Shown here: piece by piece, positions 8,144-58,940 of the stretch
Layout of the letters: each line of letters opens with the position of its first letter
Position numbering within the stretch: position 1 is the stretch's first letter
Assembly: GCA_002722515.1 (NCBI GenBank)
Contig: PBMH01000041.1
Coordinates: 94-64,093, forward strand
Origin: Alphaproteobacteria bacterium
Lineage (GTDB): Bacteria > Pseudomonadota > Alphaproteobacteria > UBA6615
Length of the DNA stretch: 64,000 nt
Reading direction: 5' to 3'
Program-made: the position numbers and the translations under genes
The notes under the pieces: model-generated
Told to the model about the DNA's origin: nothing
The model's input: the letters and a program-made list of their open reading frames with translations, nothing else
Databases searched by the model: none

Positions 8144-8365
8144 ATGACATAAGCGATATTTGTTGCCGGTGGCACTTGATGTCGTCTGGACTAACAAGTT
8201 TTTCGGTTCGGTCACCGTCATGGCACTGGTACCGCGCGGTTCATGCGAGGGGATGTCTGTGGAACGGCTTTCGTAGAGCAGTACAGTCGCAAAAATGGTT
8301 TTGATGCACGTGTGCATAGCTGGATTTGCCGTGAATCTTTCGTGATTGTGTCTTCGCCGGGCTAA
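8144..8365 (+). pseudogene. Degraded NAD-dependent epimerase (galE-like) N-terminal relic
   Basis: GGAGA RBS plus ATG, then MT*AIFVAGGT*..LD*..FGHRH...RFMRGDV...F...GFDARVH...ES with three internal stops. Resembles GalE ILVTGG../LDNLSTGHR/GDV/FDAV.H/GES. Confidence 0.5.
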
Positions 8366-8488
8366 AAAATGGTGTGGCCCCTTATTCGCTTAGATCAAAA
8401 CGCCTTTAAACGGTTGATTTCGGTGCCCCGGACGGCGATATAGCAACGTGCTATGCTCACGCGAAGTTCTTGAAAAGGAATTGTTTTC

Positions 8489-9133
8489 GTGTCGGACCAA
8501 CTGTTCCGCGAAGTGGACGAAGAAGTACGCCAGGACCGCCTCCAGAACCTCTGGAAGCGTTACGGCATATATGCGGCGATTGCAGCGGTAGCAATTGTTG
8601 TTGGCACGGTTGCGTTCGTGCTTTGGCAGGACGCTCAGAAAAGCGCGCGTGACGCCGACAGCGCCCGATTCCTGAATGCCGTCGTTCAGGAAAGTACGGC
8701 AGCTGATTCGGCACTGCTTGAACTGCGCGAGCTGGGGAACGAGGGCACGGTGGCTTATCGGTTCTTGGCGAAGCTGCGCGAAGGTCGCCTGTTAGCCGAC
8801 CAAGGTGACAGGGCTCAGGCCCTGGTTATATTTGATTCAATCTCGGCAGATTCCGGTCTTGGCGACACCTATCGTGACCTAGCAAGGTTGTTGGCCGTTG
8901 CAAACGGCTTGGATGTGTTGTCGCAGAATGAAGTTGAAGAACGTATTGGTTCGTTAAATTCCCCAGACAATCCGTTTTGCGTTACTGCGCGCGAGTTTCT
9001 GGCGTTAGCTGCGATGCAGGTCGGGGATAATGCGCGCGCGGAAGAGCTATTGCGAGCTAATCTGTCTGACGCATCGGCGCCGGTCGCCTCGCGTGCTCGG
9101 GCCTCCGAAATTCTGACTGCGATCGGGCGCTGA
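8489..9133 (+). CDS. YfgM-like TPR membrane chaperone (DUF2659 type)
   Basis: FREVDEEVRQDR...LWKRYG followed by a single TM helix. Canonical position before bamB-der. Confidence 0.85.
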   Translation: MSDQLFREVDEEVRQDRLQNLWKRYGIYAAIAAVAIVVGTVAFVLWQDAQKSARDADSARFLNAVVQESTAADSALLELRELGNEGTVAYRFLAKLREGRLLADQGDRAQALVIFDSISADSGLGDTYRDLARLLAVANGLDVLSQNEVEERIGSLNSPDNPFCVTAREFLALAAMQVGDNARAEELLRANLSDASAPVASRARASEILTAIGR

Positions 9134-9135
9134 AG

Positions 9136-11880: not shown

Positions 11881-12594
11881 TCAGGCGAGGTCGATCACTT
11901 CACCGTGACGTGTGCAGTTCGCTGATGCAAGCCCAACAAAAGTGCCGGTGATGTCGTCCGGAGCTTTGAGGGTTTCCGGATCCTCACCTGGGAATGCTGC
12001 GGCCCGCATTCCCGTACGTGTTGGTCCTGGGTTTACAAGATTGACCCGCACGTTGGTCTCGGCCAGTTCGGCCGACCAGACATGCACGATGGTCTCGAGA
12101 GCAGCCTTCGTCACTGCATACGCTCCCCAGAAGGCACGCGGGTTTGTGGCGGCACCGCTGGTCACCATAATAGCGCGACCCGTGTCAGACCGGCGCAGAA
12201 CTGGATCTAGAGTTCGAATCAGTCGCCAGTTCGCATGCACGTTGACGTCGAAGACATGATGCCAAGCCGTGGCGTCATAGTGGGTTAGCGGGGTTATGTC
12301 TCCAAGAGCACCAGCATTTCCCACCAGTATGTCTAGTTTGTCGAAACGTTCTAGAAGTGCTGGTCCAAGGGTGTCAATCCGCTCGAACTCCGTTAGGTCG
12401 CAGGGCACCAGAGTAGACTGTCCACCTGCTGCCTTGATTGCGTCGTCGACCTCTTCGAGCCCGCCGACCGTGCGGGCTAACAGGACTACATGAGCGCCCT
12501 CTGTGGCGAACCTCTTGGCCACGGCTGCACCGATACCGCGCGAGGCACCAGTGATTAACGCGACACGTCCGGCGAGCGTACCTTTGTTCGACAT
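11881..12594 (-). CDS. Short-chain dehydrogenase/reductase (YciK-like)
   Basis: TGASRGIG, GNAG, YxxxK (YAVTK) and NPGPTRTGMRA.AFPGEDP motifs. Usual neighbour of purF. Confidence 0.9.
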   Translation of the reverse strand: MSNKGTLAGRVALITGASRGIGAAVAKRFATEGAHVVLLARTVGGLEEVDDAIKAAGGQSTLVPCDLTEFERIDTLGPALLERFDKLDILVGNAGALGDITPLTHYDATAWHHVFDVNVHANWRLIRTLDPVLRRSDTGRAIMVTSGAATNPRAFWGAYAVTKAALETIVHVWSAELAETNVRVNLVNPGPTRTGMRAAAFPGEDPETLKAPDDITGTFVGLASANCTRHGEVIDLA

Positions 12595-12601
12595 CGCTTG
12601 G

Positions 12602-13156
12602 TTAGGCCAGTTCAGCTAGGAGCGACATTTGCGAAGTGTTGTTGGTGAGCGTGATTGGGTATTCACCGCTGAAGCAGGCATCGCAATATTGCGGCATGTC
12701 CGCGTCGCGGGTCTGTCCGCCCATGGCGCGGTAAAGGCCGTCCATGGAGGCATCGGCCAGGCTGTCAGCACCAATCAGTTTTTGGATTCCATCGACGTCA
12801 TTTTTGGCAGCGGGAAGCTCCGAGGCTAGCGGGGTGTCTATACCGTAGAAGCAAGGGCTTTTGGTCGGTGGGCTGGCGATGCGAACATGCACCTCTGCAG
12901 CGCCGGCATTGCGGACCATTTCTATGATCTTCTGCGAGGTGGTACCGCGCACGACGCTATCGTTAACTAGAATCACCCGCTTGCCGTCATAAAAAACGAT
13001 ATCGGCAGCTTCTTGGCGGCGATGTTGCAGCGCGTGCAGACCGAGTGCCGTGAAAGCGGCCGCGTCTTCAGTGCCTAACACGCCGAAGACACCGCATTCC
13101 TCATGAAACTTGTCTGGGTTATCCTTAAACGGGTTCGTGGTGTGTGTATGAGTCAC
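12602..13156 (-). pseudogene. purF: Amidophosphoribosyltransferase with large in-frame internal deletion (184 aa)
   Basis: The N-terminus (EECGVFG..LHALQHR.QE) is fused directly to the C-terminal PRT part (GKRV.LV.DS.VRGTTS, PCFYGIDTP, CDACF.GEYP). About 300 aa are missing. Conserved residues are altered (QHRGQE>QHRRQE, VDDS>VNDS). Confidence 0.85.
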
Positions 13157-13818
13157 TGGTTCTGCCGTATCAAATCTTCGAGGCTGTCACGCTCGCGCTC
13201 GTTATACCCTTCCTGGGTGCGTGGCGCAGACTTTTCGGGCGGGCGCGATAGTCGCTCTAGGGCTTTACTTGCGGCATCAAGATTGATGGCCCGGTCCTTT
13301 GCGCTCTTAAGTGTGGCGCCCGTCTCGCCGATGACGTCAGCCGGCAGGATTTCCTTCACCAGAAGCGCGCCCCGTTCCACTGCTGGGCGCGTCCGTGCCG
13401 CCTCCACCCAGGGCGGCGGGTCATCCAGAAAGATGTCGCTCAGGAACAAGAACGCGACGGAGATAACGGCACTTGCGGTTGCCAGCCCCGCGAGTAGGCC
13501 GAGCGAGCGGTCGAGAGCATTGAGGCGGCCGGCCCGCACCCAGCCACTGAGTATATGGCTGAACAGGTGAAGCACGATCAGTGAGACGATGAAAAGAGCA
13601 GCACCTGCTGCGAGTTCGGCGAGCCATTCCGGCTGAATATAATTACTGGAAATTGGCGACACATAGACTAGCGCGTAGATCGTTGTCAGGCCGGCGCCGA
13701 CCCACGAGGCGACAAAAAGTCCGCCTCGCACGAAGCCCGTAACGAGTCCGAAGAGCCCACCTAGAGAGATGATCGTCAGGACCACGATATCGAAAAAGCT
13801 GAAGCCGCCGAACTCCAT
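13153..13818 (-). CDS. cvpA: CvpA family membrane protein
   Basis: FDIVV.., GFVR, LDRSLGLL.G and TM helices. Canonical radA-cvpA-purF order. Confidence 0.88.
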   Translation of the reverse strand: MEFGGFSFFDIVVLTIISLGGLFGLVTGFVRGGLFVASWVGAGLTTIYALVYVSPISSNYIQPEWLAELAAGAALFIVSLIVLHLFSHILSGWVRAGRLNALDRSLGLLAGLATASAVISVAFLFLSDIFLDDPPPWVEAARTRPAVERGALLVKEILPADVIGETGATLKSAKDRAINLDAASKALERLSRPPEKSAPRTQEGYNERERDSLEDLIRQNQ

Positions 13819-13821
13819 GGG

Positions 13822-15228
13822 TCAGGCGCTCACCATATCGCCACGCTGCGGCGTCGTTTCGAACCCGTCGAACACCTCGCGCAGCTTTTGGACCTCGGTG
13901 ATTTTAAGGCTAGTTATGGCCCTTTTGCGGCTCTGTTGGCGCCCGGTGCTCAATGGCGGCGTGAGGGCGCATTTGAAGCCTAACTTCTCTGCTTCGCGAA
14001 GGCGGGCATCGGCCTGCCCTACGCTACGGATCTCGCCGCCAAGGCCAATTTCGCCGAAAACTACTGTGCGCGGCGGCAGGGGTCGTTCCAAATGGGCGGA
14101 CACTAGGGCCGCAGCTACGGCGAGATCTGCGGCTGGTTCGCCGACGCGCAGGCCGCCAGCCACGTTTAGATAGACGTCGTGGGAACCCAGGGTCATGCTG
14201 CAGCGAGTCTGGAGAACCGCTATTATCATCGCTAGCCGGCTTGAATCCCACCCCACAACTGCGCGCCGCGGGGATCCGGCTGGTGCCGGGGCCACCAACG
14301 CCTGGATTTCTACCAGTAGCGGACGAGTTCCCTCGATGCCGGCGAACACTGCCGAGCCACTCGTCGTGTCGTTGTGGCCGGAGATAAACAGTCCCGAGGG
14401 ATTTTCAACCTCGGTCAGCCCGGCATCAGTCATTTCAAAGACGCCTATCTCGTCGGTGGCACCGAAGCGATTCTTGACTGCGCGAAGCAGGCGGAATTGG
14501 TTCGCCCGTTCACCCTCAAAATATAGAACTGTATCGACCATGTGCTCGAGTACGCGGGGGCCGGCTATTGCTCCTTCCTTGGTGACATGACCGACCAAGA
14601 TTATCGTTACGCCGCGGCGCTTCGCTACCCGAATAAGTTCTTGGGCACAGGTTCGTACCTGGGCGACGGTACCCGGTGCTGAATCGAGATTGTCAGCATA
14701 CATCGTCTGGATGGAATCGATGATGGCGACCTCGGCGCCACCGACCTTGTCGAGGGTAGCGAGAATGTCGCGAATATTTGTTGCTGAGGCTAGGTTGACC
14801 GGCGTGTTAGCAAGTTTTAGCCGGGAGGCGCGTAGGCGAATCTGGTCGACGGCCTCCTCGCCGGAAATATAAGCTACGGAAACTCCAGCGCAGGCTAGCA
14901 TTGCGGCGGCTTGCAGCAGGAGCGTTGACTTGCCAATACCTGGATCACCACCAACGAGAAGCGCCGAGCCGGTGACTAGGCCGCCGCCACATACACGGTC
15001 GAACTCGGCCAAGCCCGTCATGCGCCGGGGCCGTTCTTCTGGTGCACCGTCTAGGGAGGTAAACGCGACGGGCTTGCCCCCCGCTTTGCTAACGCCCTTG
15101 GGGACGATTATATCGTCCGACTCCTCTGCGATCGTGTTCCACTCGCCGCAGCTGTCGCATTTACCGCTCCACTTGCGGTGCACGGTGGCACAGGTCTTGC
15201 AGACGAACTGATTTGTAACGCGCGCCAT
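13822..15228 (-). CDS. radA: DNA repair protein RadA/Sms
   Basis: C4 zinc finger, GDPGIGKST, IDSIQT, KNRFG and Lon-like C-terminus. Start chosen at MARVTNQF. Confidence 0.96.
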   Translation of the reverse strand: MARVTNQFVCKTCATVHRKWSGKCDSCGEWNTIAEESDDIIVPKGVSKAGGKPVAFTSLDGAPEERPRRMTGLAEFDRVCGGGLVTGSALLVGGDPGIGKSTLLLQAAAMLACAGVSVAYISGEEAVDQIRLRASRLKLANTPVNLASATNIRDILATLDKVGGAEVAIIDSIQTMYADNLDSAPGTVAQVRTCAQELIRVAKRRGVTIILVGHVTKEGAIAGPRVLEHMVDTVLYFEGERANQFRLLRAVKNRFGATDEIGVFEMTDAGLTEVENPSGLFISGHNDTTSGSAVFAGIEGTRPLLVEIQALVAPAPAGSPRRAVVGWDSSRLAMIIAVLQTRCSMTLGSHDVYLNVAGGLRVGEPAADLAVAAALVSAHLERPLPPRTVVFGEIGLGGEIRSVGQADARLREAEKLGFKCALTPPLSTGRQQSRKRAITSLKITEVQKLREVFDGFETTPQRGDMVSA

Positions 15229-15230
15229 CG

Positions 15231-16013
15231 CTAGGTTGCGCCCTGCAACTGGATTGGCCCGATGGAACGTCCATTGATGAATTGGTCGACCATGTCGTTT
15301 CCGGAGTGATCGATATCGCCAACCGGACCGTGCCATACGATCCGACCTTGGTGGATCAAGGCAACATTGTCGGCGATTCGGCGTGCACTTGCCATGTCGT
15401 GTGTAATGGTCAGCGCCGTGGCTCCAAGTTCATGTACGGATTTCAAGATTAAGTTGTCGATGACGCTACCCATTATCGGGTCGAGGCCCGTTGTCGGCTC
15501 ATCGAAGAACAAGATTTCGGGCCGGGTCGCGATGGCCCGGGCGAGGCCCACACGTTTCTGCATACCGCCTGATAATTCAGCCGGTGCACGGTCGGCAATA
15601 TCGTCATCGAGACCGACGATGTTCATCGCGTCTAACGCTGCATCGCGGGCATCGCTGCGTACCATATTTCGGGCCTGTGTTAAGCCGAAGGCGACATTTT
15701 CCCAGACTGGCAGACTATCGAAAAGAGCAGCGCCTTGGAACAGCATACCGAACTTTCGCGTAATCCGTTCGCGTCTGTCTGGTGACATACCGACCGTTTC
15801 GTCCCCATCCACGCGGATGGATCCTGAATTCGGTTCTAGTAAGCCGATGATGCTCTTTATAAGAACGGATTTACCTGTTCCCGAGCCTCCAATTACGGCA
15901 AGCGATTTTCCGGCGGGTAGATCGAGATCGATTCCGCGCAGTACACGGTTCTCGCCGAAGGCCTTATGCAGCTCCCGGATCACAATTTTCGGGGTATCGC
16001 CGAGGCTGCTCAT
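15231..16013 (-). CDS. mlaF: MlaF-like ABC transporter ATP-binding protein
   Basis: GGSGTGKS, LFQGAALFDSL, LSGGMQKRVGLARA and FDEPTTGLDP motifs. Confidence 0.9.
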   Translation of the reverse strand: MSSLGDTPKIVIRELHKAFGENRVLRGIDLDLPAGKSLAVIGGSGTGKSVLIKSIIGLLEPNSGSIRVDGDETVGMSPDRRERITRKFGMLFQGAALFDSLPVWENVAFGLTQARNMVRSDARDAALDAMNIVGLDDDIADRAPAELSGGMQKRVGLARAIATRPEILFFDEPTTGLDPIMGSVIDNLILKSVHELGATALTITHDMASARRIADNVALIHQGRIVWHGPVGDIDHSGNDMVDQFINGRSIGPIQLQGAT

Positions 16014-16780
16014 GTGGCGAAGAACATGGCGGTGATAATGAAATTGAACAGCAGCAGCAGGATTGAAGCTGACACGACAGCATTGGTTGTCGCTTGGCCA
16101 ACGCCTTGGGCCCCACCCTTGGAATGGTATCCGTGATAGGTACCCATTAGTGCGACGACGAATCCGAACACGGCCGCTTTCACGAGCCCTGAGATAAAGC
16201 CGGGGGCGTCAATACTGTCCCAGGTGCTCTTCAGGTACGTCGTCGGGTTAAATCCGAAGTCGTAGATTGATACTAGGAAACCCCCTAGCACGCCGATCAC
16301 GTCGGCGATTAGCACCAGGAGCGGCAACGTGGCGATAGCGGCGATTAGGCGCGGCGCGATGAGATACTTGTACGGGTTGGTTGACAGCGTGGTCAGGGCA
16401 TCGATCTGCTCGGTAACCCGCATGGTACCGATCTCTGCGGCCATCGCTGCGCCTATGCGACCGGCTACCATAAGGCCGGCCAGAACGGGTCCGAGTTCGC
16501 GGGTAATGCCCCAGACTACGACGTTGGCAATCGTGGCTTCGCCTGCAAATCCGAAGCCGCTGAAGCTCTGTAGGGCCAGCACCGCGCCGGTGAAGATCGC
16601 TGTGAGACCGACGACGGGTAACGAGTAGTAGCCAATCTCTATAATCTGGTGAAGAATCAGGCGTGGGTAGAAGGGCGGACGAACACAGTGGGACAGGCTG
16701 ATTGCTGCGAAGGCGGTAATGTATCCTATCGTTGCGAAGATGCTTATCGTACCGCGCCCGATGGATGCCAGGAAGCCCAT
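16010..16780 (-). CDS. mlaE: MlaE-like ABC transporter permease
   Basis: RELGPVL.GLMVAGR.GAA.AAEIGTMRVTEQIDAL and GGAQGVG.ATT.AVV motifs. Confidence 0.92.
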   Translation of the reverse strand: MGFLASIGRGTISIFATIGYITAFAAISLSHCVRPPFYPRLILHQIIEIGYYSLPVVGLTAIFTGAVLALQSFSGFGFAGEATIANVVVWGITRELGPVLAGLMVAGRIGAAMAAEIGTMRVTEQIDALTTLSTNPYKYLIAPRLIAAIATLPLLVLIADVIGVLGGFLVSIYDFGFNPTTYLKSTWDSIDAPGFISGLVKAAVFGFVVALMGTYHGYHSKGGAQGVGQATTNAVVSASILLLLFNFIITAMFFAT

Positions 16781-16782
16781 AC

Positions 16783-17934
16783 TCAGACAGCCCCGCCGCG
16801 ATATTCGACCCGCAGGCGCGGCCCTAGACGGCTCAAGACCTCATACGCGATGGTCCCCGAAGCCTCGGCGAGTGAGTCGGCGTTGACATTAGGGCCCAGA
16901 AGCTCGACCGTTTGGCCGGGCTGGCAATACTCTGTCGGGATGTCGGTCACGTCGATGGTGATTAGGTCCATGGATACCCGGCCGACCAAGGGCGCCGCCT
17001 TTCCATTGATATAGGCGCACATGCTGCTACTCTCCATGTAGCCGGTGGTCTCTCCTGCGGCTCGTGGATAGCCGTCGGCGTAACCTGCGGCGAGTGTTGC
17101 GATCCGGCGCGGACCACCGACCCGATGAATGGCACCGTATCCAACGGTCATTGGGGTGTCAACGTCACGGACTTGTAGTATTTTCGTATAAATATCAATG
17201 ACTTGAACCATCGGATTCGGGCCCTGAGCTGATGGCCGAACCCCGTATAATGCGGCGCCGGGCCGCACCATATCGTAGTGAAAACTTGGTCCAAGAAATA
17301 TGCCTGGGGAATTCGCCAAGCTTGCACTCACCGCGCCCGTCAGCGGTGCCATGCGCGCCCGCAGAGTATCAAACGTGGCGCGCTGCAGCTCGTTCATCGG
17401 ATGATTGGGAGTATCTGCACAGGCGAGATGGCTGAGTATTGCCATTACGTCAATGCCGTCCATGCGCGCAGGATCTGCGCAGAGGGCGTCCACATCGTGG
17501 GCGTTAAGACCGAGTCTGTTCATGCCAGTGTCCAAATGCAACCAAGCGCGGGCAGGCTCATTGCCTCCGTTTTTGCTTAGAATATCAATCTGGGCGAGAC
17601 TGTTGAGTGTGGGGGTCAGGCGTGCGTTGCGCATCGTGTCCAGACTCCTGACTTCGGGCCCATTGAGTACGATGATCTTGGCCTGTCCGTTGGTCTTCCG
17701 TAGTTGGATACCCTCGCAAATGGTAGCTACGAAGAACGTATCGCATCCTGCAGCGGCCAGCGTCCTGGTTACCGCGCCGGCGCCGAGTCCATAGGCATTT
17801 GCCTTGACTGCGGCGCCCACGCATGTGTCGGTACAAACGCTTTTAATACGGCGAAAATTCTCTGCGATAGCATCTAGGTCGACGATCAGAAGCGCGCCGG
17901 CATCGGCTGGGATGACGATATCGCGCGCCGCCAA
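16783..17934 (-). CDS. alr: Alanine racemase
   Basis: AVKANAYGLG (PLP lysine), DTGMNRLG, SHLACAD, GYADG, GRVSMD and TIAYE motifs. Likely TTG start just after the dnaB stop. Confidence 0.93.
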   Translation of the reverse strand: MAARDIVIPADAGALLIVDLDAIAENFRRIKSVCTDTCVGAAVKANAYGLGAGAVTRTLAAAGCDTFFVATICEGIQLRKTNGQAKIIVLNGPEVRSLDTMRNARLTPTLNSLAQIDILSKNGGNEPARAWLHLDTGMNRLGLNAHDVDALCADPARMDGIDVMAILSHLACADTPNHPMNELQRATFDTLRARMAPLTGAVSASLANSPGIFLGPSFHYDMVRPGAALYGVRPSAQGPNPMVQVIDIYTKILQVRDVDTPMTVGYGAIHRVGGPRRIATLAAGYADGYPRAAGETTGYMESSSMCAYINGKAAPLVGRVSMDLITIDVTDIPTEYCQPGQTVELLGPNVNADSLAEASGTIAYEVLSRLGPRLRVEYRGGAV

Positions 17935-17938
17935 GGCT

Positions 17939-19489
17939 CTAGTACCGGTCCTCGGGTAGATAGTCGTCGGGCGACAGGTTGGCGAACTGGGTGTAGTTAC
18001 CGTTGAACTGGAGAACCACTGTTCCGATCGGCCCATGCCGTTGTTTGGCGACAATTCCCTCTGCTTTGCCCCGGCATTTTTCCATGAGTTCCATGTAGCG
18101 CTGCTCGCGCTCGAGGTAGGTTTCCTGTTTTTCGCTATCGCGCGGGGTTGGCTTCTCGCGCTCACGATAATATTCCTCGCGAAAAATGAATGTTACGACA
18201 TCGGCATCCTGCTCGATCGAGCCTGATTCACGTAGATCCGATAGCTGCGGGCGCTTGTCCTCCCGTTGTTCGACCGCGCGTGAGAGCTGACTGAGTGCAA
18301 TCACGGGCACGTTAAGCTCTTTCGCGAGCGCCTTCAGTCCGCGTGTGATTTGTGAGACCTCCTGGACGCGGTTATCGCCACGGCTGTTAGTCGGCGGATT
18401 TATGAGTTGCAGATAGTCTACGATAATCAAGCTCAGGCCATGCTGACGCTTGAGACGTCGCGAACGGGTGCGAATCTGTGCCATTGTCAGTGCCGGTGTG
18501 TCGTCGATAAATATTTTTAGGCCATGTAGGGCCTGAGACACTGCAAAAACCCGATTATACTCTTCCTCACGCACGTCGCCGCGGCGGATCGAGTCCGATC
18601 GTACGTGAGCTTGCTCGGAAATGATGCGGGTGGCGAGTTGTTCCGCCGACATCTCGAGGGAGAAGAAGGCGACACTCTCAGTTTCCTCGATGTCGGTGTC
18701 GTCAGGCCCGTCCTGCACCTGCTTGGACGAGGCTGCGTGATAGGCAATGTTGGTCGCCAGCGCCGTCTTACCCATGGAGGGGCGGGCTGCCACGATCACG
18801 AGGTCGGATTCGTGCAGGCCGCCGAGGAGTTTGTCTAGGTCGGTGAAACCGGTCGGCACGCCGACCAACTGCCCATCGCGCTTGTAGGCGGCGGCGGCCA
18901 TATTAATAGCGCCTGTCACCGCGCTCTTGAAATCGCGAAAGCCGGTTTCGGTCGAGCCTTCCTCGGCGAGCTGGAACAGCAGCTCCTCGGCGTGCTCGAT
19001 CTGCTCCGGCGCCGGGGTTTCCAGTTCATACTCGTAGGCGCTATTGACGACTTGGCTGCCAATGTCAATCAGCTCGCGTCGCAGAAAGCAGTCATAGACC
19101 TCGCGCCCCAGGTCGAATGCGTTCTGGACGGTGGTGACGGCGTTAGCGAGCTCGGCTATGTAGGCTTGGCCACCGATCGCATTTAAGTCGGCATCGTCCT
19201 TGAAGTAATTTTTCAGCGTGACGGGGTCAGCGATTTGTCCATGCTCTATCAGATGGGCGCAGGCGGCGTAGACGCTGGCATGAGCCGGGTCTGCGAAATG
19301 CTCGGCCAAGAGGAACTCCTGCACCCGCTCGAATGAACGATTATTTACGAGAATTGCTCCCAAAAGTCCCATCTCCGCCTCGAAATTATGGGGCGGAGAC
19401 CGGAATCCAATGCTACCTTCCTCGCCGTGGAGGGGCGTGATATTGACGGCTTCGTCGGTCATTGGGTCAGTCATGTCGCTCGTAGTCAT
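17939..19489 (-). CDS. dnaB: Replicative DNA helicase DnaB
   Basis: PHNFEAE, ARPSMGKT, FSLEMS, VDYLQL, SQLSR and DLRESGSIEQDAD motifs. Confidence 0.97.
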   Translation of the reverse strand: MTTSDMTDPMTDEAVNITPLHGEEGSIGFRSPPHNFEAEMGLLGAILVNNRSFERVQEFLLAEHFADPAHASVYAACAHLIEHGQIADPVTLKNYFKDDADLNAIGGQAYIAELANAVTTVQNAFDLGREVYDCFLRRELIDIGSQVVNSAYEYELETPAPEQIEHAEELLFQLAEEGSTETGFRDFKSAVTGAINMAAAAYKRDGQLVGVPTGFTDLDKLLGGLHESDLVIVAARPSMGKTALATNIAYHAASSKQVQDGPDDTDIEETESVAFFSLEMSAEQLATRIISEQAHVRSDSIRRGDVREEEYNRVFAVSQALHGLKIFIDDTPALTMAQIRTRSRRLKRQHGLSLIIVDYLQLINPPTNSRGDNRVQEVSQITRGLKALAKELNVPVIALSQLSRAVEQREDKRPQLSDLRESGSIEQDADVVTFIFREEYYREREKPTPRDSEKQETYLEREQRYMELMEKCRGKAEGIVAKQRHGPIGTVVLQFNGNYTQFANLSPDDYLPEDRY

Positions 19490-19692
19490 AGTCCTGCACC
19501 CTAATGATGCTTGCGTCCTTGCGGTGCATTCATCTGCGGTGAGTTCAGTGAAACATGAGGATAAGCTGATTCGTGGTGACTGTATTTTCGCTTGCAGTGA
19601 ACCGTGATCTGGTCATAGCGAACGTTTTCGCGGTTAGTCCGTGGACCATTTAGGCCTATATTTTTGTTCGGTAATTCATCAAGGAGATATCA

Positions 19693-20676
19693 ATGCGTGC
19701 AGCCTGGTATGCGGAATTCGGATCCGCAAAGGATGTTTTTGAGGTCGGTGAGCAGAACACACCGACCGCCGGCGATGGCGAAGTTCTGGTGCGGATCCAT
19801 GCTTCGGGGATAAACCCGCTTGATGTGAAGCGTCGCGCGGGCGAACGCGGTCCCATGGTAGGAAACCGAATGGTTCCGCATTTTGATGGGGCGGGAGTGA
19901 TTGTAGCAGTTGGTACCGGTGTGGATTCAGCCCGGATCGGCGAACGGGTATGGGTCTTTGAAGGGCATTGGATGCGCGGCGACGGCACGGCGGCGGAGTA
20001 TGTCAGTTTGCCTGAATCCCGCGCAAACCCGCTGCCGGATGATCAGAGTTTCTCCGAGGGGGCCTGCTTGGGTATACCGGCGATGACGGCGCATCCGCTG
20101 GTCTTTACTGATGGTGCGGTTGACGGCCAGACGGTACTGGTGACTGGCGCGGCGGGTGCTGTGGGCAACTATGCCGTTCAGATGGCGCGAAACGGCGGCG
20201 CTACCGTAATCGGCACCGTTAGCTCCGAGGAGAAGGCCCTGCTGGCGATCGAGGCCGGCGCCAAGCACGCTATCAACTACAAAACCGAGGACGTTGCGGC
20301 CCGGGTGAAGGAACTGACCGGCGGCAAGGGTGTGGACCGGGTTATTGAGGTGGAACTCGGCGGCAACATCGAGACGACGGTCAAGATTCTAAAGACTGGC
20401 GGTGTCATTGCAGCCTACGCATCGATGGCCCAGCCGGTTGTACCTTTCTCTTTCTACGGATTCCTTATGAAGTCCCCAACCCTGCGCATTATCGGTTGTT
20501 TTACCATGCCGGATGCCTTTAAGGCCCAGAGTGTGGCGGATATTTCACGATGGATGGCCGAAGGGAAGCTTGCCAGCAGCGTTGCTACCGAGTTTCCGCT
20601 GGCCGAAATTGCTGCAGCCCATGAGATGGTTGAGGGGGGCCGCCAGGTCGGCGGTGTAGTTGTGACGATTGACTAG
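19693..20676 (+). CDS. NADPH:quinone reductase (zeta-crystallin/MDR family)
   Basis: SGINP.DVK.R, PH.DGAG, GT.AEY and TGAAGAVG motifs. AAGGAG RBS. Confidence 0.88.
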   Translation: MRAAWYAEFGSAKDVFEVGEQNTPTAGDGEVLVRIHASGINPLDVKRRAGERGPMVGNRMVPHFDGAGVIVAVGTGVDSARIGERVWVFEGHWMRGDGTAAEYVSLPESRANPLPDDQSFSEGACLGIPAMTAHPLVFTDGAVDGQTVLVTGAAGAVGNYAVQMARNGGATVIGTVSSEEKALLAIEAGAKHAINYKTEDVAARVKELTGGKGVDRVIEVELGGNIETTVKILKTGGVIAAYASMAQPVVPFSFYGFLMKSPTLRIIGCFTMPDAFKAQSVADISRWMAEGKLASSVATEFPLAEIAAAHEMVEGGRQVGGVVVTID

Positions 20677-21125
20677 GTGTTCTTGATCGCTTGGATGATC
20701 GTCTCAAGCGCCTGCAGAAATTTTGACCGGTCACTTTTGGTAAATGTGGGCGGGCCACCGGTAATTTCGCCGGTTGATCGGAGGTCGGTCATCAAGTTGC
20801 GGGTCGCCAGTGCCATACCGATAGAGGCCTGATCCAGTTGCTTGCCGTTGGGCCTAAGGGCTCGGGCATTTTTCTTGATACAACGGTCGGCTAGCGGGAT
20901 ATCTTGAGTTACCACGATATCGCCCGGTCCGATGCGCTCGGCGATCCAGTCGTCTGCGATGTCTGAGCCGCAAGCTACGACTGTTTGGGTAACGAGCGGG
21001 TGCCTGCTAAATCCGAACATGCCGCTGTTTGACACGAGTTGGACTGAAATTTGGTGGCGTTCTGCGACCCGGACGATCTCGTCCTTCACGGGGCAGGCGT
21101 CTGCGTCAACGTAGATTTCGAGCAT
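20673..21125 (-). CDS. YaiI/YqxD family protein
   Basis: IYVDADACPVKDE, ADDWI, GDIVVT.DIPLA and TGGP..F...DRS.FL motifs. Confidence 0.92.
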   Translation of the reverse strand: MLEIYVDADACPVKDEIVRVAERHQISVQLVSNSGMFGFSRHPLVTQTVVACGSDIADDWIAERIGPGDIVVTQDIPLADRCIKKNARALRPNGKQLDQASIGMALATRNLMTDLRSTGEITGGPPTFTKSDRSKFLQALETIIQAIKNT

Positions 21126-21148
21126 CGATTTTGCTGACGCGCGCGGGC

Positions 21149-22381
21149 TCACTCCGCCGCTTTCTTCTCCACCTGGGATAGCCGGCGCTCCCAGTCCGTA
21201 ATGTAGTCGCGTGTGAGGGGCACGGCATCCTGCCGCTTCGCAATCTGAATCTGGAAGACCATCTGACCCATGTAGCGGAAAGAAATTTCGCAGCCGATGA
21301 GATAGAACTCCCACATACGGCAGAACCGTTCGTCGTACAGTTCAACTGCCTTTTCGCGCTGGGCCATGAAGCGTTCATACCAGTGATGTAGTGTTTCGGC
21401 GTAGTGCAGGCGCAGAATTTCGATGTCCGTGACCCATAGGCCGGCTTTTTCGATCGCCGAAAGGGTCTCGGAAAGGGCGGGGGTGTAGCCACCCGGGAAA
21501 ATATATTTACGCAGCCACTGATTGGTTGTTCCGGGTGGCTCCATGCGTCCGATCGAGTGCAAAAGAAAAATACCGTCTTCGGCCAGGAGCTGCTTTGCCT
21601 TGCGGAAATATTCGAGATGGTGGCCCGTGCCAACGTGTTCAAACATTCCCACCGAGACGATGCGATCGAAAATTTCCGGCTCGTCACGATAATCCTGCAG
21701 TTTGAACCGAACTTGATCGGATAGGCCTTCGTTAGCTGCGCGCTGCTGGCTCACCTTATGCTGCTCTTTCGAAAGGGTCACGCCGGTGACGTCGGCACCC
21801 GTTGTCTTTGCGAGGTAAAGCGCTAGGCCGCCCCAACCCGAACCTATGTCGAGGACTTTCTTTCCCGGTTCATCAAGAAGCAGCTTGGCCGCAATGTGGC
21901 GCTTCTTGTTGTCCTGGGCCCGATCAAGATCGTTATGGCTGCCGTCGAAATAGGCGCAGGAATATTGTCGGTCAGGGTCTAGGAATAGATCGTATAGATC
22001 GTCCGACAAGTCATAATGATGAGCAACATTCTTCTGCGCCTTGCCGACCGGATTATATTGTTGGATTCGGCGGAAGAGGTGGCTGAGGTTTGCTGTAAGA
22101 TCGGAGAACCAGTGACCCTCGAAGGATTCGATGTTGCGTCCTACAAGGTCTATCAGGTCGAAGAGTGCACCCTCCTCGATCGTCAGTGTCCCATCCATAT
22201 ACGCTTCGCCTAGGGCCAGTCTAGGATTTAGAAGTAAACGTTGTTCCGTGGCGCGATCGTGAATCCGGACTGCGACGTGCGGGGGTTCACCGTTGCCGAA
22301 ACGGTGTGTCTTTCCACCAGCATCGATCAGGACGAAGTTGCCCTCGTCGATGATTCTATCGAGAAATCGAGCAAGAAGCAT
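21149..22381 (-). CDS. cfa: Cyclopropane-fatty-acyl-phospholipid synthase family methyltransferase
   Basis: NVAHHYDL, QYSCAYF, LDIG.GWGG, SVGMFEHVG, KYIFPGG and RMWEFYL motifs. Confidence 0.92.
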   Translation of the reverse strand: MLLARFLDRIIDEGNFVLIDAGGKTHRFGNGEPPHVAVRIHDRATEQRLLLNPRLALGEAYMDGTLTIEEGALFDLIDLVGRNIESFEGHWFSDLTANLSHLFRRIQQYNPVGKAQKNVAHHYDLSDDLYDLFLDPDRQYSCAYFDGSHNDLDRAQDNKKRHIAAKLLLDEPGKKVLDIGSGWGGLALYLAKTTGADVTGVTLSKEQHKVSQQRAANEGLSDQVRFKLQDYRDEPEIFDRIVSVGMFEHVGTGHHLEYFRKAKQLLAEDGIFLLHSIGRMEPPGTTNQWLRKYIFPGGYTPALSETLSAIEKAGLWVTDIEILRLHYAETLHHWYERFMAQREKAVELYDERFCRMWEFYLIGCEISFRYMGQMVFQIQIAKRQDAVPLTRDYITDWERRLSQVEKKAAE

Positions 22382-22466
22382 CGTATCCCCCGTGTCTAAT
22401 TAATGTTCACGACGCCACGGCAAAGTTAGCAAAACTAGCGCGAACGGGCAAAACACGGAATCGCAT

Positions 22467-23186: not shown

Positions 23187-23187
23187 T

Positions 23188-23355
23188 TCATACCTCCTGG
23201 CCGGATCGCAATAATCCGGTCGCTATCAGCGGGATGCCGGTCTGGTGCAGGTGCGTGGCCGCACCGATGCCGAACGCGAACGGAACCGCAAAGAACAGTT
23301 CCAACAGCGCATCTGCGCTGAGCGTAAAGGCATATGATTTGACCGGGTTCATCAT
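23188..23355 (-). pseudogene. Short ORF resembling the N-terminus of the DUF2232 membrane protein normally found between rpsR and rplI
   Basis: 55-aa hydrophobic ORF (LSADALLELFF...PLIATGL) in the DUF2232 syntenic slot. Its last codons contain the rplI RBS. Confidence 0.45.
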
Positions 23356-23394
23356 AGTTTCATGTCGCACCGGCGTATCCACGTGCCGGGGCCG

Positions 23395-24167: not shown

Positions 24168-24173
24168 ATTCTG

Positions 24174-29936: not shown

Positions 29937-29950
29937 AACAGGTCTCCTGT

Positions 29951-30176
29951 TTAGAAGAATGTGAGCATACGAATGCCTAGGTAGAGTGGCCATGGGAACG
30001 CGATAAGTGCCCGCCCGTTCGCCAAGCCTTTAACGATGCGTTATGCAGCGCACCCCGTTGCGGCCGCTCAGGCTTAGCTGTCTCCCCGGTGTCGCATAGG
30101 CGCGCGCCAAAGCGGCTCCTGTCCCGCTGGAAGCACCGGTTATCATGATATGACTAGGTGTTTTAAGAAACGACAC
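29951..30176 (-). pseudogene. Collapsed SDR gene: only the N- and C-termini remain
   Basis: HIMITGASSGTGAALARAYATPGRQLSLSGRN is joined, with a frameshift, to AA*RIVKGLANGRALIAFPWPLYLGIRML. The catalytic core is absent. Confidence 0.75.
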
Positions 30177-50385: not shown

Positions 50386-52182
50386 ATGCATCCCTATAGA
50401 ACCCATACCTGCGGCGAATTGCGCAATGAAAATGCCGGGGACATCGTTCGCCTGTCGGGCTGGGTCCACCGCAAGCGCGATCATGGCAACCTTCTATTCG
50501 TTGACCTACGTGACCAGTATGGCATCACCCAGTGCGTGATCGACACCTCCAGCCCGATTTTCGCGACGGTTGAGGGCGCAAGGCTGGAGTCCGTAGTAAC
50601 GGTTACTGGTCCAGTGGTGCTCCGTTCTGAGGCGACAGTGAATCCGAGTTTACCAACGGGCGCTGTTGAGGTTGGCATCGATGTTATAAATGTCGAGAAC
50701 AGCGCTGACATGCTCCCGCTACAGGTGAATTCTGACGAGGATACTGGCGAGGATATCCGCCTGCGGTATCGTTACCTTGACCTGCGTCGCGAGAAGGTTG
50801 CGCGCAACATACTGCTACGCAACGACGTTATCGCGTCGATACGTCGGCGCATGATCGAGGCCAATTTTAAGGAATTCCAGACCCCGATCTTGACGGCGTC
50901 GTCACCCGAGGGTGCGCGCGACTATTTGGTGCCTTCACGTCTGCATCCGGGCAAGTTCTACGCGCTGCCCCAGGCTCCTCAGCAGTTTAAACAGCTGTTG
51001 ATGGTTGCCGGATTCGACAAGTATTTTCAAATCGCACCCTGTTTTCGTGACGAAGACGCGCGGGCTGACCGCTCGCCGGGCGAATTCTACCAGCTCGATT
51101 TTGAGATGGCATATTCCACCCAGGATGACGTTTTCAACGCTATCGAACCGGTGATTGCTGGCGTTTTCGAGGAGTTTGCGGGGTTCGGCCGGGACGAACC
51201 CTGGTCGGTAACTGCGACGCCGTTTCCGCGTATTCCCTACGCCGAATCAATTCTCAAATACGGCAGCGATAAACCCGACTTGCGCAATCCAATTGAGATC
51301 GCGGATGTCGCTGAGGTGTTCGACGGTTCAGATTTCAAGATATTTTCGAAGTTGGTGGGTATGGGTGGCACCGTGCGTGCCATTCCTGCGCCACGCGGTG
51401 GGTCGCAGCCGCGCAGCTGGTATGACAAGCTTAACGATTGGGCCCGCGAAGAAGGGGCGCCGGGACTCGGATACATAATCCTTGAGGACGGCGAGGGAAA
51501 GGGACCGATCTCCAAATTCGTCGCCGGTGAGCGCCTTGCGAGGCTAAAGGAACTGGCGGGGTTGGAAGACGGTGACGCGGTATTTTTCTCAGCCGGTGAA
51601 GCAGGCGAAGCAGCAGAGCTGGCGGGCAAGGCACGTACCAAGATCGGCGAAGACCTCGATCTAATTCCGACCGGGCGCTACGACTTTTGCTGGATTGTTG
51701 ATTACCCGATGTTCGAGAAAGACAAGGACACGGGTAAAATCAAATTCTCGCACAACCCTTTCTCCATGCCCCAGGGCGAGATGGCTGCACTTGATGTCGA
51801 CGATCCCCTGGATGTGCTCGCCTACCAGTACGACATAGTTTGTAATGGCGTGGAACTGTCATCAGGTGCGATCCGGAATCACCGACCGGATATTATGCTC
51901 AAGGCTTTCGAGATTGCAGGTTATAATCGGGAGACCGTGGAGCGTGAATTCGCTGGTATGTTCAACGCCTTCCGCTACGGAGCACCTCCACATGGCGGGT
52001 CTGCGCCGGGCATCGATCGCATTGTGATGCTGATAGCCGACGAGCCTAATATTCGTGAGGTCATAGCCTTTCCTATGAACCAGCGCGCCGAAGACTTGAT
52101 GATGGGTGCCCCTGCCGAAGTGGATGACACGCGGCTACATGAACTGCACCTAAAGAAGTTGCCAACCAAGGGAGGCAAGTAA
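50386..52182 (+). CDS. aspS: Aspartate--tRNA ligase (probably non-discriminating)
   Basis: [34 protein letters not shown] and PPHGG...GIDR motifs. Confidence 0.97.
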
Positions 52183-55234: not shown

Positions 55235-55320
55235 CTGTTGCCGCCGCCGCTGCCGCAAAAAGTAAGAGTTGAGTGCACATTGGTTTCAAGGGCACCTAGA
55301 AGTGGGTGGTTTATGCGTCG

Positions 55321-55449
55321 GTGTTGCCTAGTTCCCGGACCGGGAACATATGGCAGCTATGGGGAATGGCCGATGTCCGCTATGCCAGAGCGGCGGTGTC
55401 ACAGCTGATACCGCTGAACTAGCCCGTTGGCCCGGAGGCCGCGTGGTAA
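55321..55449 (+). pseudogene. Collapsed RidA/YjgF-family gene relic
   Basis: One frame reads VLPSSRTGNIWQLWGMADVRYARAAVSQLIPLN*PVGPEAAW*. This resembles RidA N-terminal P..RTGN...GQL fused to C-terminal GRHARAAVG...LPLN.PVEVEA. Confidence 0.55.
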
Positions 55450-55508
55450 GGCATAACTTGGCGTATTGCAAGAATTCGCCGCAGAATTCTGTTTAGGATA
55501 GACTCATC

Positions 55509-56351
55509 ATGGCCTTCGAGATCAAAGCAGTTTGCAACCTGCTTGCAGGGGTGCTGTTTTTAATTTTTCTTTCGACCAAAATTTCTGGGGCGGTGGCGGT
55601 TAGCCATGCATCCCACCGCGCCTTCTATGCAATAAGTATTAGCCACGTTGCGGTAGAATCAAACATCGTTGACGCGCGCGGTCGAATGGTTGTCGAATGG
55701 CGCGATGACTGCGACGGTTGGTCATCCAGTCAGCGTCTCGCAGTTAGCATGGCGCCAAGGGATGGTGAACCGGTGACCTCAGAGGTCATGATGACGAGTT
55801 TCGAAACCTTTGACGGGAAGCTATTCAGTTTCGATTCCGAAACCCGTATCGGTGGCGAGATTGTGGAGGCGGTGAAAGGCTTCGCGGAACGTGACGGACG
55901 GGGCAAGCCGGGGCGCGCTATCTACAAGGTTCCGAATGGAGTGATCGTTGACCTTCCGGCCGATACGGTGTTTCCCTTTGAGCATACGATCGCTGTGATT
56001 GAGGCTGCTAAGCAGGGCCAATCTCGAGCGTTCAGTCACTATTTTGACGGGTCTCAGCCGGAGGATTCGCCGATGGCAGCAAATTCGCTTATTCTTGGCG
56101 AGGCGCGTGATGCATCCGACGGCGGCCAGAACGGTTTTGGCGGAATAAGTCAACACAAGTGGTGGGCGGTTCGTCTTGCGATGTTTGCTAACGACGACGC
56201 CAAGCGTCCGACCGAACAGCCGGAGTTCGAGATGACACAGCTTCTGCAGGACAATGGTGTTGTCCGTCAGTTCGAGTTTGACTATGGAGAATTTTCGTTG
56301 GTTGCCGCGTTGGTCGCTATTGAGAAAATAGATTCGCCGCCTTGTAACTGA
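55509..56351 (+). CDS. eipB: Cell envelope integrity protein EipB (DUF1849)
   Basis: Signal peptide, HRA.Y, GRM..EW...CDGW, E..DG..F.F, LP..T.FP..H, FDG, L..NGV and a terminal Cys. Confidence 0.85.
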   Translation: MAFEIKAVCNLLAGVLFLIFLSTKISGAVAVSHASHRAFYAISISHVAVESNIVDARGRMVVEWRDDCDGWSSSQRLAVSMAPRDGEPVTSEVMMTSFETFDGKLFSFDSETRIGGEIVEAVKGFAERDGRGKPGRAIYKVPNGVIVDLPADTVFPFEHTIAVIEAAKQGQSRAFSHYFDGSQPEDSPMAANSLILGEARDASDGGQNGFGGISQHKWWAVRLAMFANDDAKRPTEQPEFEMTQLLQDNGVVRQFEFDYGEFSLVAALVAIEKIDSPPCN

Positions 56352-56390: not shown

Positions 56391-57719
56391 TCAGCGCCTA
56401 GTAGATTTAGTGTTTGCCGGTTTCTTTCGTTTCGGGATTGTTCGGCCCTTAACAATAGCGTCGTTGCCCAGCTTACTGCGCACTTGGTCAATGACAGCCT
56501 CAACACGTTTGCGGTGATAGAAATCCGGATCGGCAAGGTCAGGCGGGTCGGCCTCCAGTGGGTCGGTGAAGTTCGACAAGCCCACACCTATCAGCCGGAA
56601 CTTGCTTCCCGCCGGTGCGGCGTCGACCGCTCGGTCGAGCAGAGGGATAGCAGCGCGGAAGAGTGTTTCGGCAAGTTGCGTTGGAGTTGGCAGAGCCTGG
56701 GATCGCGTCAGGGTCTTGAAAGTAGATGACTTTAATTTGATTGTTACCGTACGACCTGCAAGGTCACGCGCTTTTATCCGATCGGTCACCTTTTCGCAAA
56801 GTGGCCACAATCTCTGGGCCAGAATTTCGCGATCGCCAATATCTTCAAAGAACGTATTTTCGTTCGATAAGCTCTTAGGCCCGGAATGTGGTTTCACTCT
56901 GCGATGATCTTCACCGCGGCTGAAACGCGCCAGACGTTGCCCGATCGCCCCGTAGCGTTTGACCAGCTGGGCTTCGTCTTGGATCCGTAATTGCCCGATC
57001 GTCTGCAAACCATCGGAAACTAGTTTCCTGTGCAGCGCTTTTCCAACCCCCCAAATTCGCGCTACCGGTAGCGTGTCCAGATAGTCTAACGCCTCATTTT
57101 CACCGATGACGGCGAAGCCACGCGGCTTGTTAATGTCTGATGCTAGTTTGGCTAAGAATTTATTGTAGCTTAGGCCGATCGAGGCCGTGACACCGATCTC
57201 GCGTTCGATGCGGTCTACTAAGTGGATCAGGGATTTTGCGGGCGTGGCATTGTGCAGCCGCTCTGTACCAGTGAGATCCAGGAAGGCCTCGTCAATGGAT
57301 AGCGGCTCGACGAGGGGCGTCATGCTGTTCATGAGGTGGCGGATTTGCCGCCCGACCGCGCTGTATTTGTCTATGTCTGGTCTGATCACTTTCGCATCGG
57401 GGCAGAGTTGCAGTGCCTTAAACATTGGCATGGCAGAGTGGACCCCTTTTATGCGGGCGACATAGCAGGCCGCCGAAACTACGCCGCGGCGCCCGCCGCC
57501 AATAATGACTGGCTTGTCGCGAAGGGAAGGGTTGTCACGTTTTTCCACGCTAGCATAGAAAGCATCGCAGTCGATGTGCGCGATCGACAACATGTCGAGT
57601 TCTTCATGGAAGAGTATGCGAGGGGTAGCGCAGCTTGGGCAGCGGCGTGCCCCCACCGGCACGTCGCCCGCACAGTCACGGCATAAGCCGTCGGGCATGT
57701 ACCGGGATGTAGCATTCAC
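56391..57719 (-). CDS. dinB: DNA polymerase IV (Y-family) with N-terminal Zn ribbon
   Basis: CRDC..CPSC, HIDCDAFYASVE, SIDEAFLD, NKFLAKLASD..KP.G and WGVG motifs. Confidence 0.95.
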   Translation of the reverse strand: MNATSRYMPDGLCRDCAGDVPVGARRCPSCATPRILFHEELDMLSIAHIDCDAFYASVEKRDNPSLRDKPVIIGGGRRGVVSAACYVARIKGVHSAMPMFKALQLCPDAKVIRPDIDKYSAVGRQIRHLMNSMTPLVEPLSIDEAFLDLTGTERLHNATPAKSLIHLVDRIEREIGVTASIGLSYNKFLAKLASDINKPRGFAVIGENEALDYLDTLPVARIWGVGKALHRKLVSDGLQTIGQLRIQDEAQLVKRYGAIGQRLARFSRGEDHRRVKPHSGPKSLSNENTFFEDIGDREILAQRLWPLCEKVTDRIKARDLAGRTVTIKLKSSTFKTLTRSQALPTPTQLAETLFRAAIPLLDRAVDAAPAGSKFRLIGVGLSNFTDPLEADPPDLADPDFYHRKRVEAVIDQVRSKLGNDAIVKGRTIPKRKKPANTKSTRR

Positions 57720-58639
57720 TCTGCGGCACTCCTGCTATCCGTATTGAGAGGCCAGAGCCAGGCGGCTCCGCGGACACCGCTTGAATCTCCATGTTTAGCC
57801 TTGCGTACAGATGTCGAGATATTGTCGGAGAAGGTGTAATGGGCGATCCGATCTCGGAGATTTACGTAAAGTTCATCGATATTGGACAGGCCTCCGCCAA
57901 GAACTATCACGTCGGGATCGATGATATTGATGATCATAGCAAGACCACGTGCAAGGCGATCTCCTAGATCTCTGAGGCAGGCTATGGCGTCACATTCGCC
58001 TTCGCCCGCAGCTTTGGAAATCTCAGCGGCGGACAAGTTTTGTCCAGTTCTCTCCGTAAAATCTCGTGCCACGGCTGGACCTGAAATGAAGGTTTCGATG
58101 CAGCCATGACGACCGCAGAAGCACTCGGGTCCGGGAAACTCTTCTGCCGTCATCCAAGGAAGGGGCGTGTGCCCCCACTCGCCGGCAATCGCGTTGCCGC
58201 CGTCCATGATTTGGCCTCGGTTTACCAGCCCTCCGCCGACGCCTGTGCCAACAATCACGCCAAAGACTGATCGTGCGCCTGCACCCGCGCCGTCCGTTGC
58301 CTCGGATACGGTGAAGCAATTCGCATCGTTGGCCACCCGTACGCGCCTTCCTAGAAGAGAAGATAAGTCTTGGTCAAAAGGACGCCCGATCAGCCAAGTC
58401 GAGTTGGCGTTCTTTATCAGGCCGGTGGCCGGGGAAATTGTCCCGGGTATGCCAATACCGATTTCGGTCCGCGCCTTGGGGTTGGGGTCGATCTGCGCTA
58501 TCAGGTCGGCGATCGCGCGAAGCGATTTCTCATAGTCGCCGTGGGTAGTTGGAACCCGTGCGCGCGCAACTTCCAATCCAGAATCGTTGAGCACGATTCC
58601 CTCAATCTTGCTCCCGCCGAGATCGATTCCGATGCGCAT
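57716..58639 (-). CDS. ROK-family sugar kinase (Mak/fructokinase-like)
   Basis: GIDLGG.K, NDANCF..SE, GTGVGGG, AGEWGH, C.CG..GC.E and GDSSGVRGAAWL motifs. Confidence 0.9.
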   Translation of the reverse strand: MRIGIDLGGSKIEGIVLNDSGLEVARARVPTTHGDYEKSLRAIADLIAQIDPNPKARTEIGIGIPGTISPATGLIKNANSTWLIGRPFDQDLSSLLGRRVRVANDANCFTVSEATDGAGAGARSVFGVIVGTGVGGGLVNRGQIMDGGNAIAGEWGHTPLPWMTAEEFPGPECFCGRHGCIETFISGPAVARDFTERTGQNLSAAEISKAAGEGECDAIACLRDLGDRLARGLAMIINIIDPDVIVLGGGLSNIDELYVNLRDRIAHYTFSDNISTSVRKAKHGDSSGVRGAAWLWPLNTDSRSAAE

Positions 58640-58665
58640 GCCTTAGATATGCATAGGGTTTATGT

Positions 58666-58940
58666 GAACATTTAGGATATTAGCACTCATTTGGAGTCAT
58701 GAGTGTGAGCGAAGCTCCAAGCTTTTCAGCCCGCCCGTAAAAGTCATCTAGGGTGCGCCCTGATAGATATAAAGCTTCCCGATGTCTTGGAACTGTAATC
58801 CACCCAATGGAACAATTGCGACACGAAGTTACGTGTATGTCATGGGTATCAGCGTGACGACTCTTTATGCGAAGGCCGATGAAGAAAAGATCCGGTAATG
58901 TAGCCGCGTAGCTTTGTGTTTGGGGTTCGAAACTGCGTGA
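58666..58940 (+). pseudogene. divK: Heavily degraded divK (single-domain response regulator) relic
   Basis: Across frames: RPD/LIDIKLPDVLEL*STQW...D..L, then ISVTTLYAKADEEKIR*. This matches DivK [23 protein letters not shown]..L....AVTAFAMKGDEE(R/K)IR. It sits in the dinB..divK-pleD..rpmG syntenic slot. Confidence 0.7.

Follow-up and report, generated by a model that had tools for sequence, protein, structure and literature searches.

The window, a 64-kb stretch of DNA on contig C41 of a draft genome (G000) from an uncultured marine alphaproteobacterial genus, holds genes that have collapsed or decayed, several of them to short remnants between intact neighbours. We consider these remnants to be natural leftovers of unneeded genes, formed by spontaneous deletions in an ongoing reduction of the genome, and we give this reading a probability of roughly 0.8. 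Within the 64 kb, no fewer than eight genes have been deleted or have decayed that relatives on either side of an unrooted tree carry intact. The observations behind this reading include the native purF, which is joined at a short direct repeat and has an intact foreign counterpart elsewhere in the genome, a gene between rpsR and rplI whose interior was lost repeatedly in the genus, and a general excess of gaps at which a relative has the longer sequence. The G000 assembly is a metagenome-assembled genome (MAG) of 58 contigs and 2.14 Mb that is 83% complete, and the genomes of 11 other species of the genus range from 2.2 to 3.8 Mb. The window has a GC content of 55–60%, and its alphaproteobacterial housekeeping genes are packed in tight operons, among them der, cvpA-purF, radA, alr and dnaB, rpsF-rpsR-rplI, and fabD-fabG-acpP-fabF; lptD/F/G, purN-purM, ppk-ppx and aspS are also present. 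Six genomes of the same genus that are collinear with the window (G001, G002, G003, G008, G009 and G010) were used as references, with about 67–80% DNA identity to it within long aligned blocks.

An earlier note on this DNA had named six gene fragments. Three of them, purF, a DUF2232-like gene and a short-chain dehydrogenase/reductase (SDR) gene, were found to be collapsed genes. A fourth, divK, is a real remnant of a different shape, and the labels galE-like and RidA-like did not survive. A fusion of an N-terminal to a C-terminal segment, claimed for purF, the SDR gene and RidA, was accordingly seen in the first two and not in the third.

The clearest case is purF. Compared with the 491-aa protein of G008, the two segments of the remnant are 77% identical over residues 1–62 and 80% identical over residues 359–491, and the match was split in the same way against every relative. 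Exactly 900 nt are absent from the window, in frame, in comparison with all six relatives. The GTG start of the remnant overlaps the cvpA stop, and its own stop lies 7 nt before the start of a yciK-like SDR gene. Membership of the equivalog family TIGR01134 takes a full-length match above 350 bits; the remnant scored 130.3 bits and matched profile positions 333–432 only, which places it outside the family. When the junction was inspected for microhomology, as the earlier note had advised, it was found to lie in the single surviving copy of the 11-nt motif CGCTTGCCGTC. In the relatives this motif bounds the missing 900-nt segment on both sides, so that the undeleted form has a repeat at each end and the deleted form has retained one copy. 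The matching run at an offset of exactly 900 nt was 10–12 nt long in three of the six relatives and 6–8 nt in the other three, compared to a background in which runs of at least 10 nt were seen at roughly 0.1% of the 3000 places sampled at random. Judged by its sequence, the junction is the signature of a deletion between short direct repeats, and the round size of 900 nt is explained by a repeat spacing that is conserved in the relatives. Deletion between short G+C-rich direct repeats has been described in Sodalis-allied symbionts (PMC4948707). Of the residues invariant across the genus, 8% are changed in the remnant, against 2.7–9.3% in its intact neighbours. An excess of change at these residues was thus rejected, as the remnant was indistinguishable from neighbouring genes, and since its rate falls within their range the deletion is probably recent.

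The loss of the native purF coincides with a second, intact copy on another contig. This gene (G000:C9:2002-3450) encodes a 482-aa protein that scored 492.2 bits against the cut-off of 350 over model positions 1–432. It sits in a 2.86-kb insertion (region G000:C9:1743-5023), together with a gene for an L-2-hydroxyglutarate-oxidase-like FAD-dependent oxidoreductase, between an ABC-transporter ATPase gene and groES-groEL. All five relatives compared at this site were collinear and lacked the insertion, and the relatives carry one native purF each, with no second copy seen. Among 201 genomes of the class, the best matches of the second purF were 80%, 77% and 72% identical, all from other families. 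That search drew just one more genome from its own family, a member of a different genus, and the identity to the purF there was 61%. Since an intact purF from another lineage is present, the native gene was probably dispensable, and the arrangement suggests that the foreign purF took over before the native copy decayed. The purine neighbours in the window, purN and purM, are intact. A broken purM was considered as a second defect in the pathway and discarded, because its CTG start is conserved in G010 and the gene contains no internal stop. At the true start of purM (42210–43286, minus strand) there is no ATG, GTG or TTG; the CTG is preceded by GAGGGAG, common to the window and G010, and lists of open reading frames (ORFs) make the gene 77 codons too short.

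Between rpsR and rplI, an intact gene for a 322-aa membrane protein was found in seven of 12 genomes of the genus. In the window, where the earlier note had placed a DUF2232-like fragment, the gene has collapsed: 48 aa remain from its N-terminus, at 69% identity, and 10 aa from its C-terminal end, and about 795 nt are absent relative to four of the six relatives (G002, G008, G009 and G010). Additional losses amount to 51 nt in G000 and around 96 nt in G001. The name DUF2232 rests on weak matches, because PF09991 (cut-off 27.8 bits) scored above its cut-off in three of the 12 genomes and below it in two more; the G008 protein at this locus gave no Pfam match at E up to 0.01. Deletion alleles were seen in four genomes, and their junctions differ. 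The allele in the window forms an open frame of 64 aa, and that of G003, with about 45 aa plus about 27 aa, is also open. The G001 allele, with about 17 aa plus about 22 aa, contains stops, and G006 retains only the last seven codons, directly after the rpsR stop and without a start. G004 gave no usable match at the locus and stands outside this comparison. Trees were built separately for blocks of 20 kb and 4 kb and for the flanks of the locus. G003 grouped with G002, G008 and G010 at 93–100% support in all five trees, G001 was usually placed beside G009, and G000, G001 and G003 never formed a clade. A single deletion shared by these three genomes is therefore ruled out, and the trees indicate that the interior of the gene was lost at least twice in the genus, and probably three or four times. 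Evidence for direct repeats at the deletion in the window was suggestive only. The ribosome-binding site of rplI, AGGAGG, lies within the last codons of the gene, and it was kept in all four deletion alleles.

An intact SDR gene of 241 aa is located between a FabG-like SDR gene and yicC in all six relatives. The G008 protein scored 122.6 bits against PF00106, so the relatives' gene belongs to the SDR family of which the window keeps pieces. The N-terminal piece covers residues 7–70 (50% identity over 64 columns, with one stop) and the C-terminal piece residues 210–239 (67% over 30 aa), and exactly 500 nt are absent compared to all six relatives, out of frame. The two segments named by the earlier note were thus recovered, with a junction unlike that of purF: in the relatives no flanking repeat above background was found at the deletion, only 3–4 nt.

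The divK remnant is a decayed middle piece rather than a fusion of two ends, since about 300 nt have been lost from both ends of the gene. Its protein matches cover codons 37–75 and 80–95 at 41% and 62% identity, with one stop. The 122-aa gene of the relatives is an orthologue of DivK, as the G009 protein scored 201.7 bits against the DivK structure PDB 1m5t and 76.5 bits against the next best, making Caulobacter DivK the closest match to the gene of which the window holds a piece. The assembly, which is 83% complete, yielded no other DivK-like gene; with the DivK query just two further receiver domains reached E < 1e-5, the better of them at 27.5% identity. DivK is essential in Caulobacter, and its loss from an alphaproteobacterium of free-living type may interest researchers working on control of the cell cycle. 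The conserved stretch that follows divK is rpmG, encoding ribosomal protein L33 (58953–59120, minus strand), and a 97-aa ORF on the plus strand (58951–59244) is a shadow frame of it. Coordinates of the remnants and altered spacers are collected in Table 1.

Table 1. Remnants, junctions and altered spacers in the window (positions count from the first nucleotide of the 64-kb stretch)
Feature	Position	Strand	Description
Spacer between dus and SIS-domain gene	3111..3127		17 nt; relatives have a GNAT/FemAB-like gene of ~1.1 kb
Shortened spacer	7325..7576		~300 nt less than in relatives; these have a small FlaG-like ORF
Probable decayed small lipoprotein-like gene	8114..8317	-	site earlier called galE-like; weak match
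Native purF remnant	12602..13156	-	184-aa open frame; residues 1-62 + 359-491
purF deletion junction	12978..12988		single surviving copy of CGCTTGCCGTC, an 11-nt direct repeat
DUF2232-like remnant	23188..23382	-	64-aa open frame between rpsR and rplI
rplI ribosome-binding site	23193..23198	-	AGGAGG, within last codons of the DUF2232-like remnant
SDR remnant	29937..30176	-	N- and C-terminal pieces, out of frame, with stops; junction at ~30047-30050
Spacer earlier called RidA-like	55235..55508		relatives have a 278-313-aa lipoprotein gene with weak SPOR-like C-terminus
divK remnant	58719..58908	+	~codons 37-100, ~60% DNA identity, stops; both gene ends gone

At the two sites whose labels failed, other genes appear to have decayed or been lost. 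The galE-like fragment had been placed at 8144, yet the 14 frames without stops in 7934–8488 gave no match to Epimerase (PF01370) at E up to 10 or to any family below E 0.1. The spacer there is as long as that of five of the six relatives, which carry an ORF for a lipoprotein-like protein of 108–109 aa on the minus strand, opposite to the supposed galE. The copy in the window gave a weak match (31% over 70 aa, E 0.087), and this small gene has probably decayed. The RidA-like fragment (YjgF, endoribonuclease L-PSP family), assigned to 55321, likewise found no counterpart: with E values up to 10 allowed, the seven stop-free frames of 55235–55508 had no match in Pfam. The relatives have a lipoprotein gene at this position whose SPOR-like end scored 16.9 bits, below the cut-off. 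Almost nothing of it is left, as only 55402–55526 of the window aligns, to the 3' end of the G009 gene and the spacer after it.

Two further losses left no trace of their own. No remnant of the FemAB-like gene was found between dus and the SIS-domain gene, where the single tblastn match (3005–3109) overlaps the end of dus, and no remnant of the FlaG-like ORF was detected at 7325–7576. Stops or deletions in divK, the FlaG-like ORF, the small lipoprotein gene, the SPOR-like lipoprotein gene and the FemAB-like gene were also observed in G001, G003 and G008, with stops in divK in all three; this suggests parallel loss at loci syntenic with the window, with the qualification that a lone stop in a MAG may be an error. 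Elsewhere, the segment 978–2130, which carries an enoyl-CoA hydratase gene (1174–2037), varies within the genus: its place is taken by different sequence, about 590 nt long in G008 and about 2.4 kb in G010. No transposase family was found among the 67 window ORFs scanned, which agrees with the earlier remark that insertion sequence (IS) scars are absent. Structured RNA was rejected as a content of the spacers, since there were no Rfam matches at gathering thresholds across the whole window.

The junctions were compared with Logan contigs of four metagenome runs placed on window positions 12000–31000, a range that leaves the divK and 55235 sites outside. The purF junction was bridged by a contig of run X1 (12149–13324) and one of X5 (12717–13051), the DUF2232-like junction by an X1 contig (21308–23425), and the SDR junction by contigs of X1 (29682–30912) and of X3 (29840–30499), which is from another study; none of these alignments had a gap. 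Among the Logan contigs on 12000–31000, none was listed that joins any of the three junctions to an intact form. Misassembly, which the earlier note had held out as the result that would overturn its proposal, was therefore not borne out, as the three junctions were reproduced in contigs of three runs. Planted or engineered deletions were also considered, because 900 and 500 nt are such round sizes. For purF this is ruled out by the natural repeat, whose copies are separated by 900 nt in each of the six relatives, and for purF and the SDR gene alike by the same junctions in independent contigs. The same comparison exposed one likely error. In fabG (25410–26148), a 4-nt insertion at 26049–26052, where AAAG is duplicated, shifts the frame 32 codons before the end, and the four extra bases are missing from the X1 and X3 contigs. 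Real decay of fabG was thus dismissed; the insertion is an error or a rare variant in the assembly.

Beyond the window, the balance of gaps points in the same direction. In a 400-kb sample of G010, about 218 kb aligned to G000, and among collinear gaps of at least 100 nt G010 was longer at 48 and G000 at five, one of these five being the purF insertion. Where G010 was longer, G000 usually retained only 5–300 nt, and most of the gaps take in entire genes. At least one other gap (C49, at about 51065–51071) falls within a gene, an ORF of 249 aa that in G000 is best matched by the fabG of the window. Together with the losses in the window and a genome of 2.14 Mb in a genus of 2.2–3.8 Mb, these counts uphold the deletion-driven reduction that had been proposed.

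We propose that deletions strike anywhere and that those cutting into needed neighbours would be purged by selection. In packed operons, surviving deletions would for this reason often be confined to one dispensable gene, the ends of which remain. For purF, recombination or a replication slip between the two copies of the 11-nt repeat may have removed the 900 nt, and the deletion would have been tolerated because the second, foreign purF had already been acquired. The last codons of the DUF2232-like gene would be kept because they contain the AGGAGG of rplI. The remnants of the SDR gene, divK and the small lipoprotein gene may be older and further decayed by deletions and substitutions. Gene ends would thus survive mainly through the removal of deletions that hit neighbours, and the end next to rplI carries a demonstrable signal as well. 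The earlier suggestion that ends persist as signals of neighbouring genes applied to this 3' end alone. Elsewhere it did not fit, as G006 lacks the N-terminal piece, divK has lost both ends, and little, if anything, survives of the FemAB-like gene and of the lipoprotein gene at 55235.

Several observations weigh against this reading. The SDR junction, with its repeat at background level, gives no indication of a repeat mechanism, and the sizes of exactly 900 and 500 nt are suspiciously round, with the spacing of the repeat accounting for the first and not for the second. Because the remnant of purF changes within the range of its intact neighbours, relaxed constraint is not demonstrated. Support for the junctions comes from contigs instead of raw reads, in which rare alleles are dropped, so a minority intact allele is possible; X1 may be the source sample of the MAG, and the contigs did not take in the divK and 55235 sites. 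The relatives are themselves MAGs in which single stops may be errors, as the frameshift of fabG was in the window, and the 48 gaps of the 400-kb sample are an unpolarised pairwise count between G010 and G000.

Selection could also have kept the remnants as functional elements, either as short translated spacer ORFs or as carriers of signals for the coupling, ribosome binding or promoters of essential neighbours, which would make the earlier note's suggestion the main cause. In line with this, the deletions of 900 nt in purF and roughly 795 nt in the DUF2232-like gene are multiples of three, as are the additional losses of 51 nt in G000 and about 96 nt in G001, and the purF and DUF2232-like remnants are open and end at their native stops. 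The yciK-like start that closely follows the purF stop has no obvious Shine-Dalgarno sequence, and the AGGAGG of rplI is retained at the 3' end of the DUF2232-like gene in every deletion allele. However, the in-frame sizes fit selection for continued translation and also a neutral bias: PMC6054270 describes, for neutral bacterial pseudogenes, deletions biased to multiples of three and a spacing of microhomology with the same bias. In addition, only two of the four DUF2232-like alleles are open, with stops in G001 and seven codons and no start in G006, the SDR deletion is out of frame, divK is without both ends, and little or no trace remains of two other genes. As the bias also arises neutrally and half of the alleles are closed, we regard selection on the remnants as improbable. 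A more elaborate version, in which the DUF2232-like gene is a recurrent deletion target with its 3' end or short translated ORF selected for rplI translation, the in-frame collapse of purF preserves coupling, and end-preserving collapse is a selected route of loss and not mere survivorship, appears to us quite unlikely.

The leftovers of unneeded genes could have accumulated in another setting, with a lineage that is associated with hosts or particles and decays by drift, as in young endosymbionts, instead of living free in the plankton. The earlier note had drawn a parallel with host-associated lineages and had asked for the sample source. The stretch was found in seven runs from four studies, six of them marine or seawater metagenomes and one a small record labelled with a coded organism name, and the closest DnaB loci belong to MAGs of uncultured marine 'Alphaproteobacteria bacterium' or 'Rhodospirillaceae bacterium'. 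A Brucella-like organism, which GC content and gene order had first brought to mind, was rejected because these closest matches are marine MAGs. The source check thus led to seawater, with nothing pointing to a host. Recognisable pseudogenes do persist, the cell-cycle regulator DivK has been lost, and flagellin was found in only two of the 12 genomes of the genus, the two largest. Three genomes with DUF2232-like deletions also have the longest branches (0.33, 0.23 and 0.44, compared to 0.10–0.18 for the others). Against this stand the marine origin of six of the seven runs, the lack of an IS expansion in the window, a GC content that is still 55–60% across it, and the intact purM, purN and fab operon. 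A life on hosts or particles is for us an unlikely explanation.

That the collapsed genes are artefacts of assembling or binning the MAG is very improbable: although the assembly is fragmented and incomplete, contains at least the fabG error in its consensus and shows round deletion sizes, three junctions were reproduced without gaps by contigs of three runs from two studies, the purF junction falls exactly in an 11-nt direct repeat, far below the word of an assembler, the remnants bear substitutions and stops of their own, and different DUF2232-like deletion alleles occur in other genomes of the genus.

Gene loss has thus been caught in progress in an uncultured marine alphaproteobacterial genus, with a junction flanked by repeats, a native enzyme gene that appears to have broken after a foreign copy arrived, and the repeated, independent loss of one gene of an operon. 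For annotation, the spacers that hold remnants should be recorded as remains of pseudogenes instead of intergenic sequence, and no functional enzyme should be assigned to the 184-aa purF ORF.

The reduction is driven by deletion and is of an already known kind, and our understanding of how bacterial genomes shrink is unchanged by it. Pseudogenes in reductive bacteria are reportedly eroded by deletion, a tendency called deletional bias (PMC2817411). In xenologous gene displacement, a foreign orthologue replaces a native gene. The purF pair resembles this, with an intact foreign gene in an insertion and a broken native copy at the syntenic position; the gain probably came before the loss. According to PMC4948707 and PMC6054270, deletions in Sodalis-allied symbionts and leaf-nodule Burkholderia similarly shrink dispensable genes, outnumber insertions and are often multiples of three. 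In contrast to those bacteria, which are restricted to hosts, this genome comes from seawater metagenomes, and its pseudogene load is drawn from one 64-kb window and one 400-kb sample. Genome reduction is also reported for pelagic marine and freshwater bacteria, namely pelagic Roseobacter lineages, Methylophilaceae and Prochlorococcus, with both lineage-specific and convergent gene deletion in those planktonic members of a clade that have smaller genomes (10.1101/2021.01.15.426902, PMC6794327 and PMC10837832).

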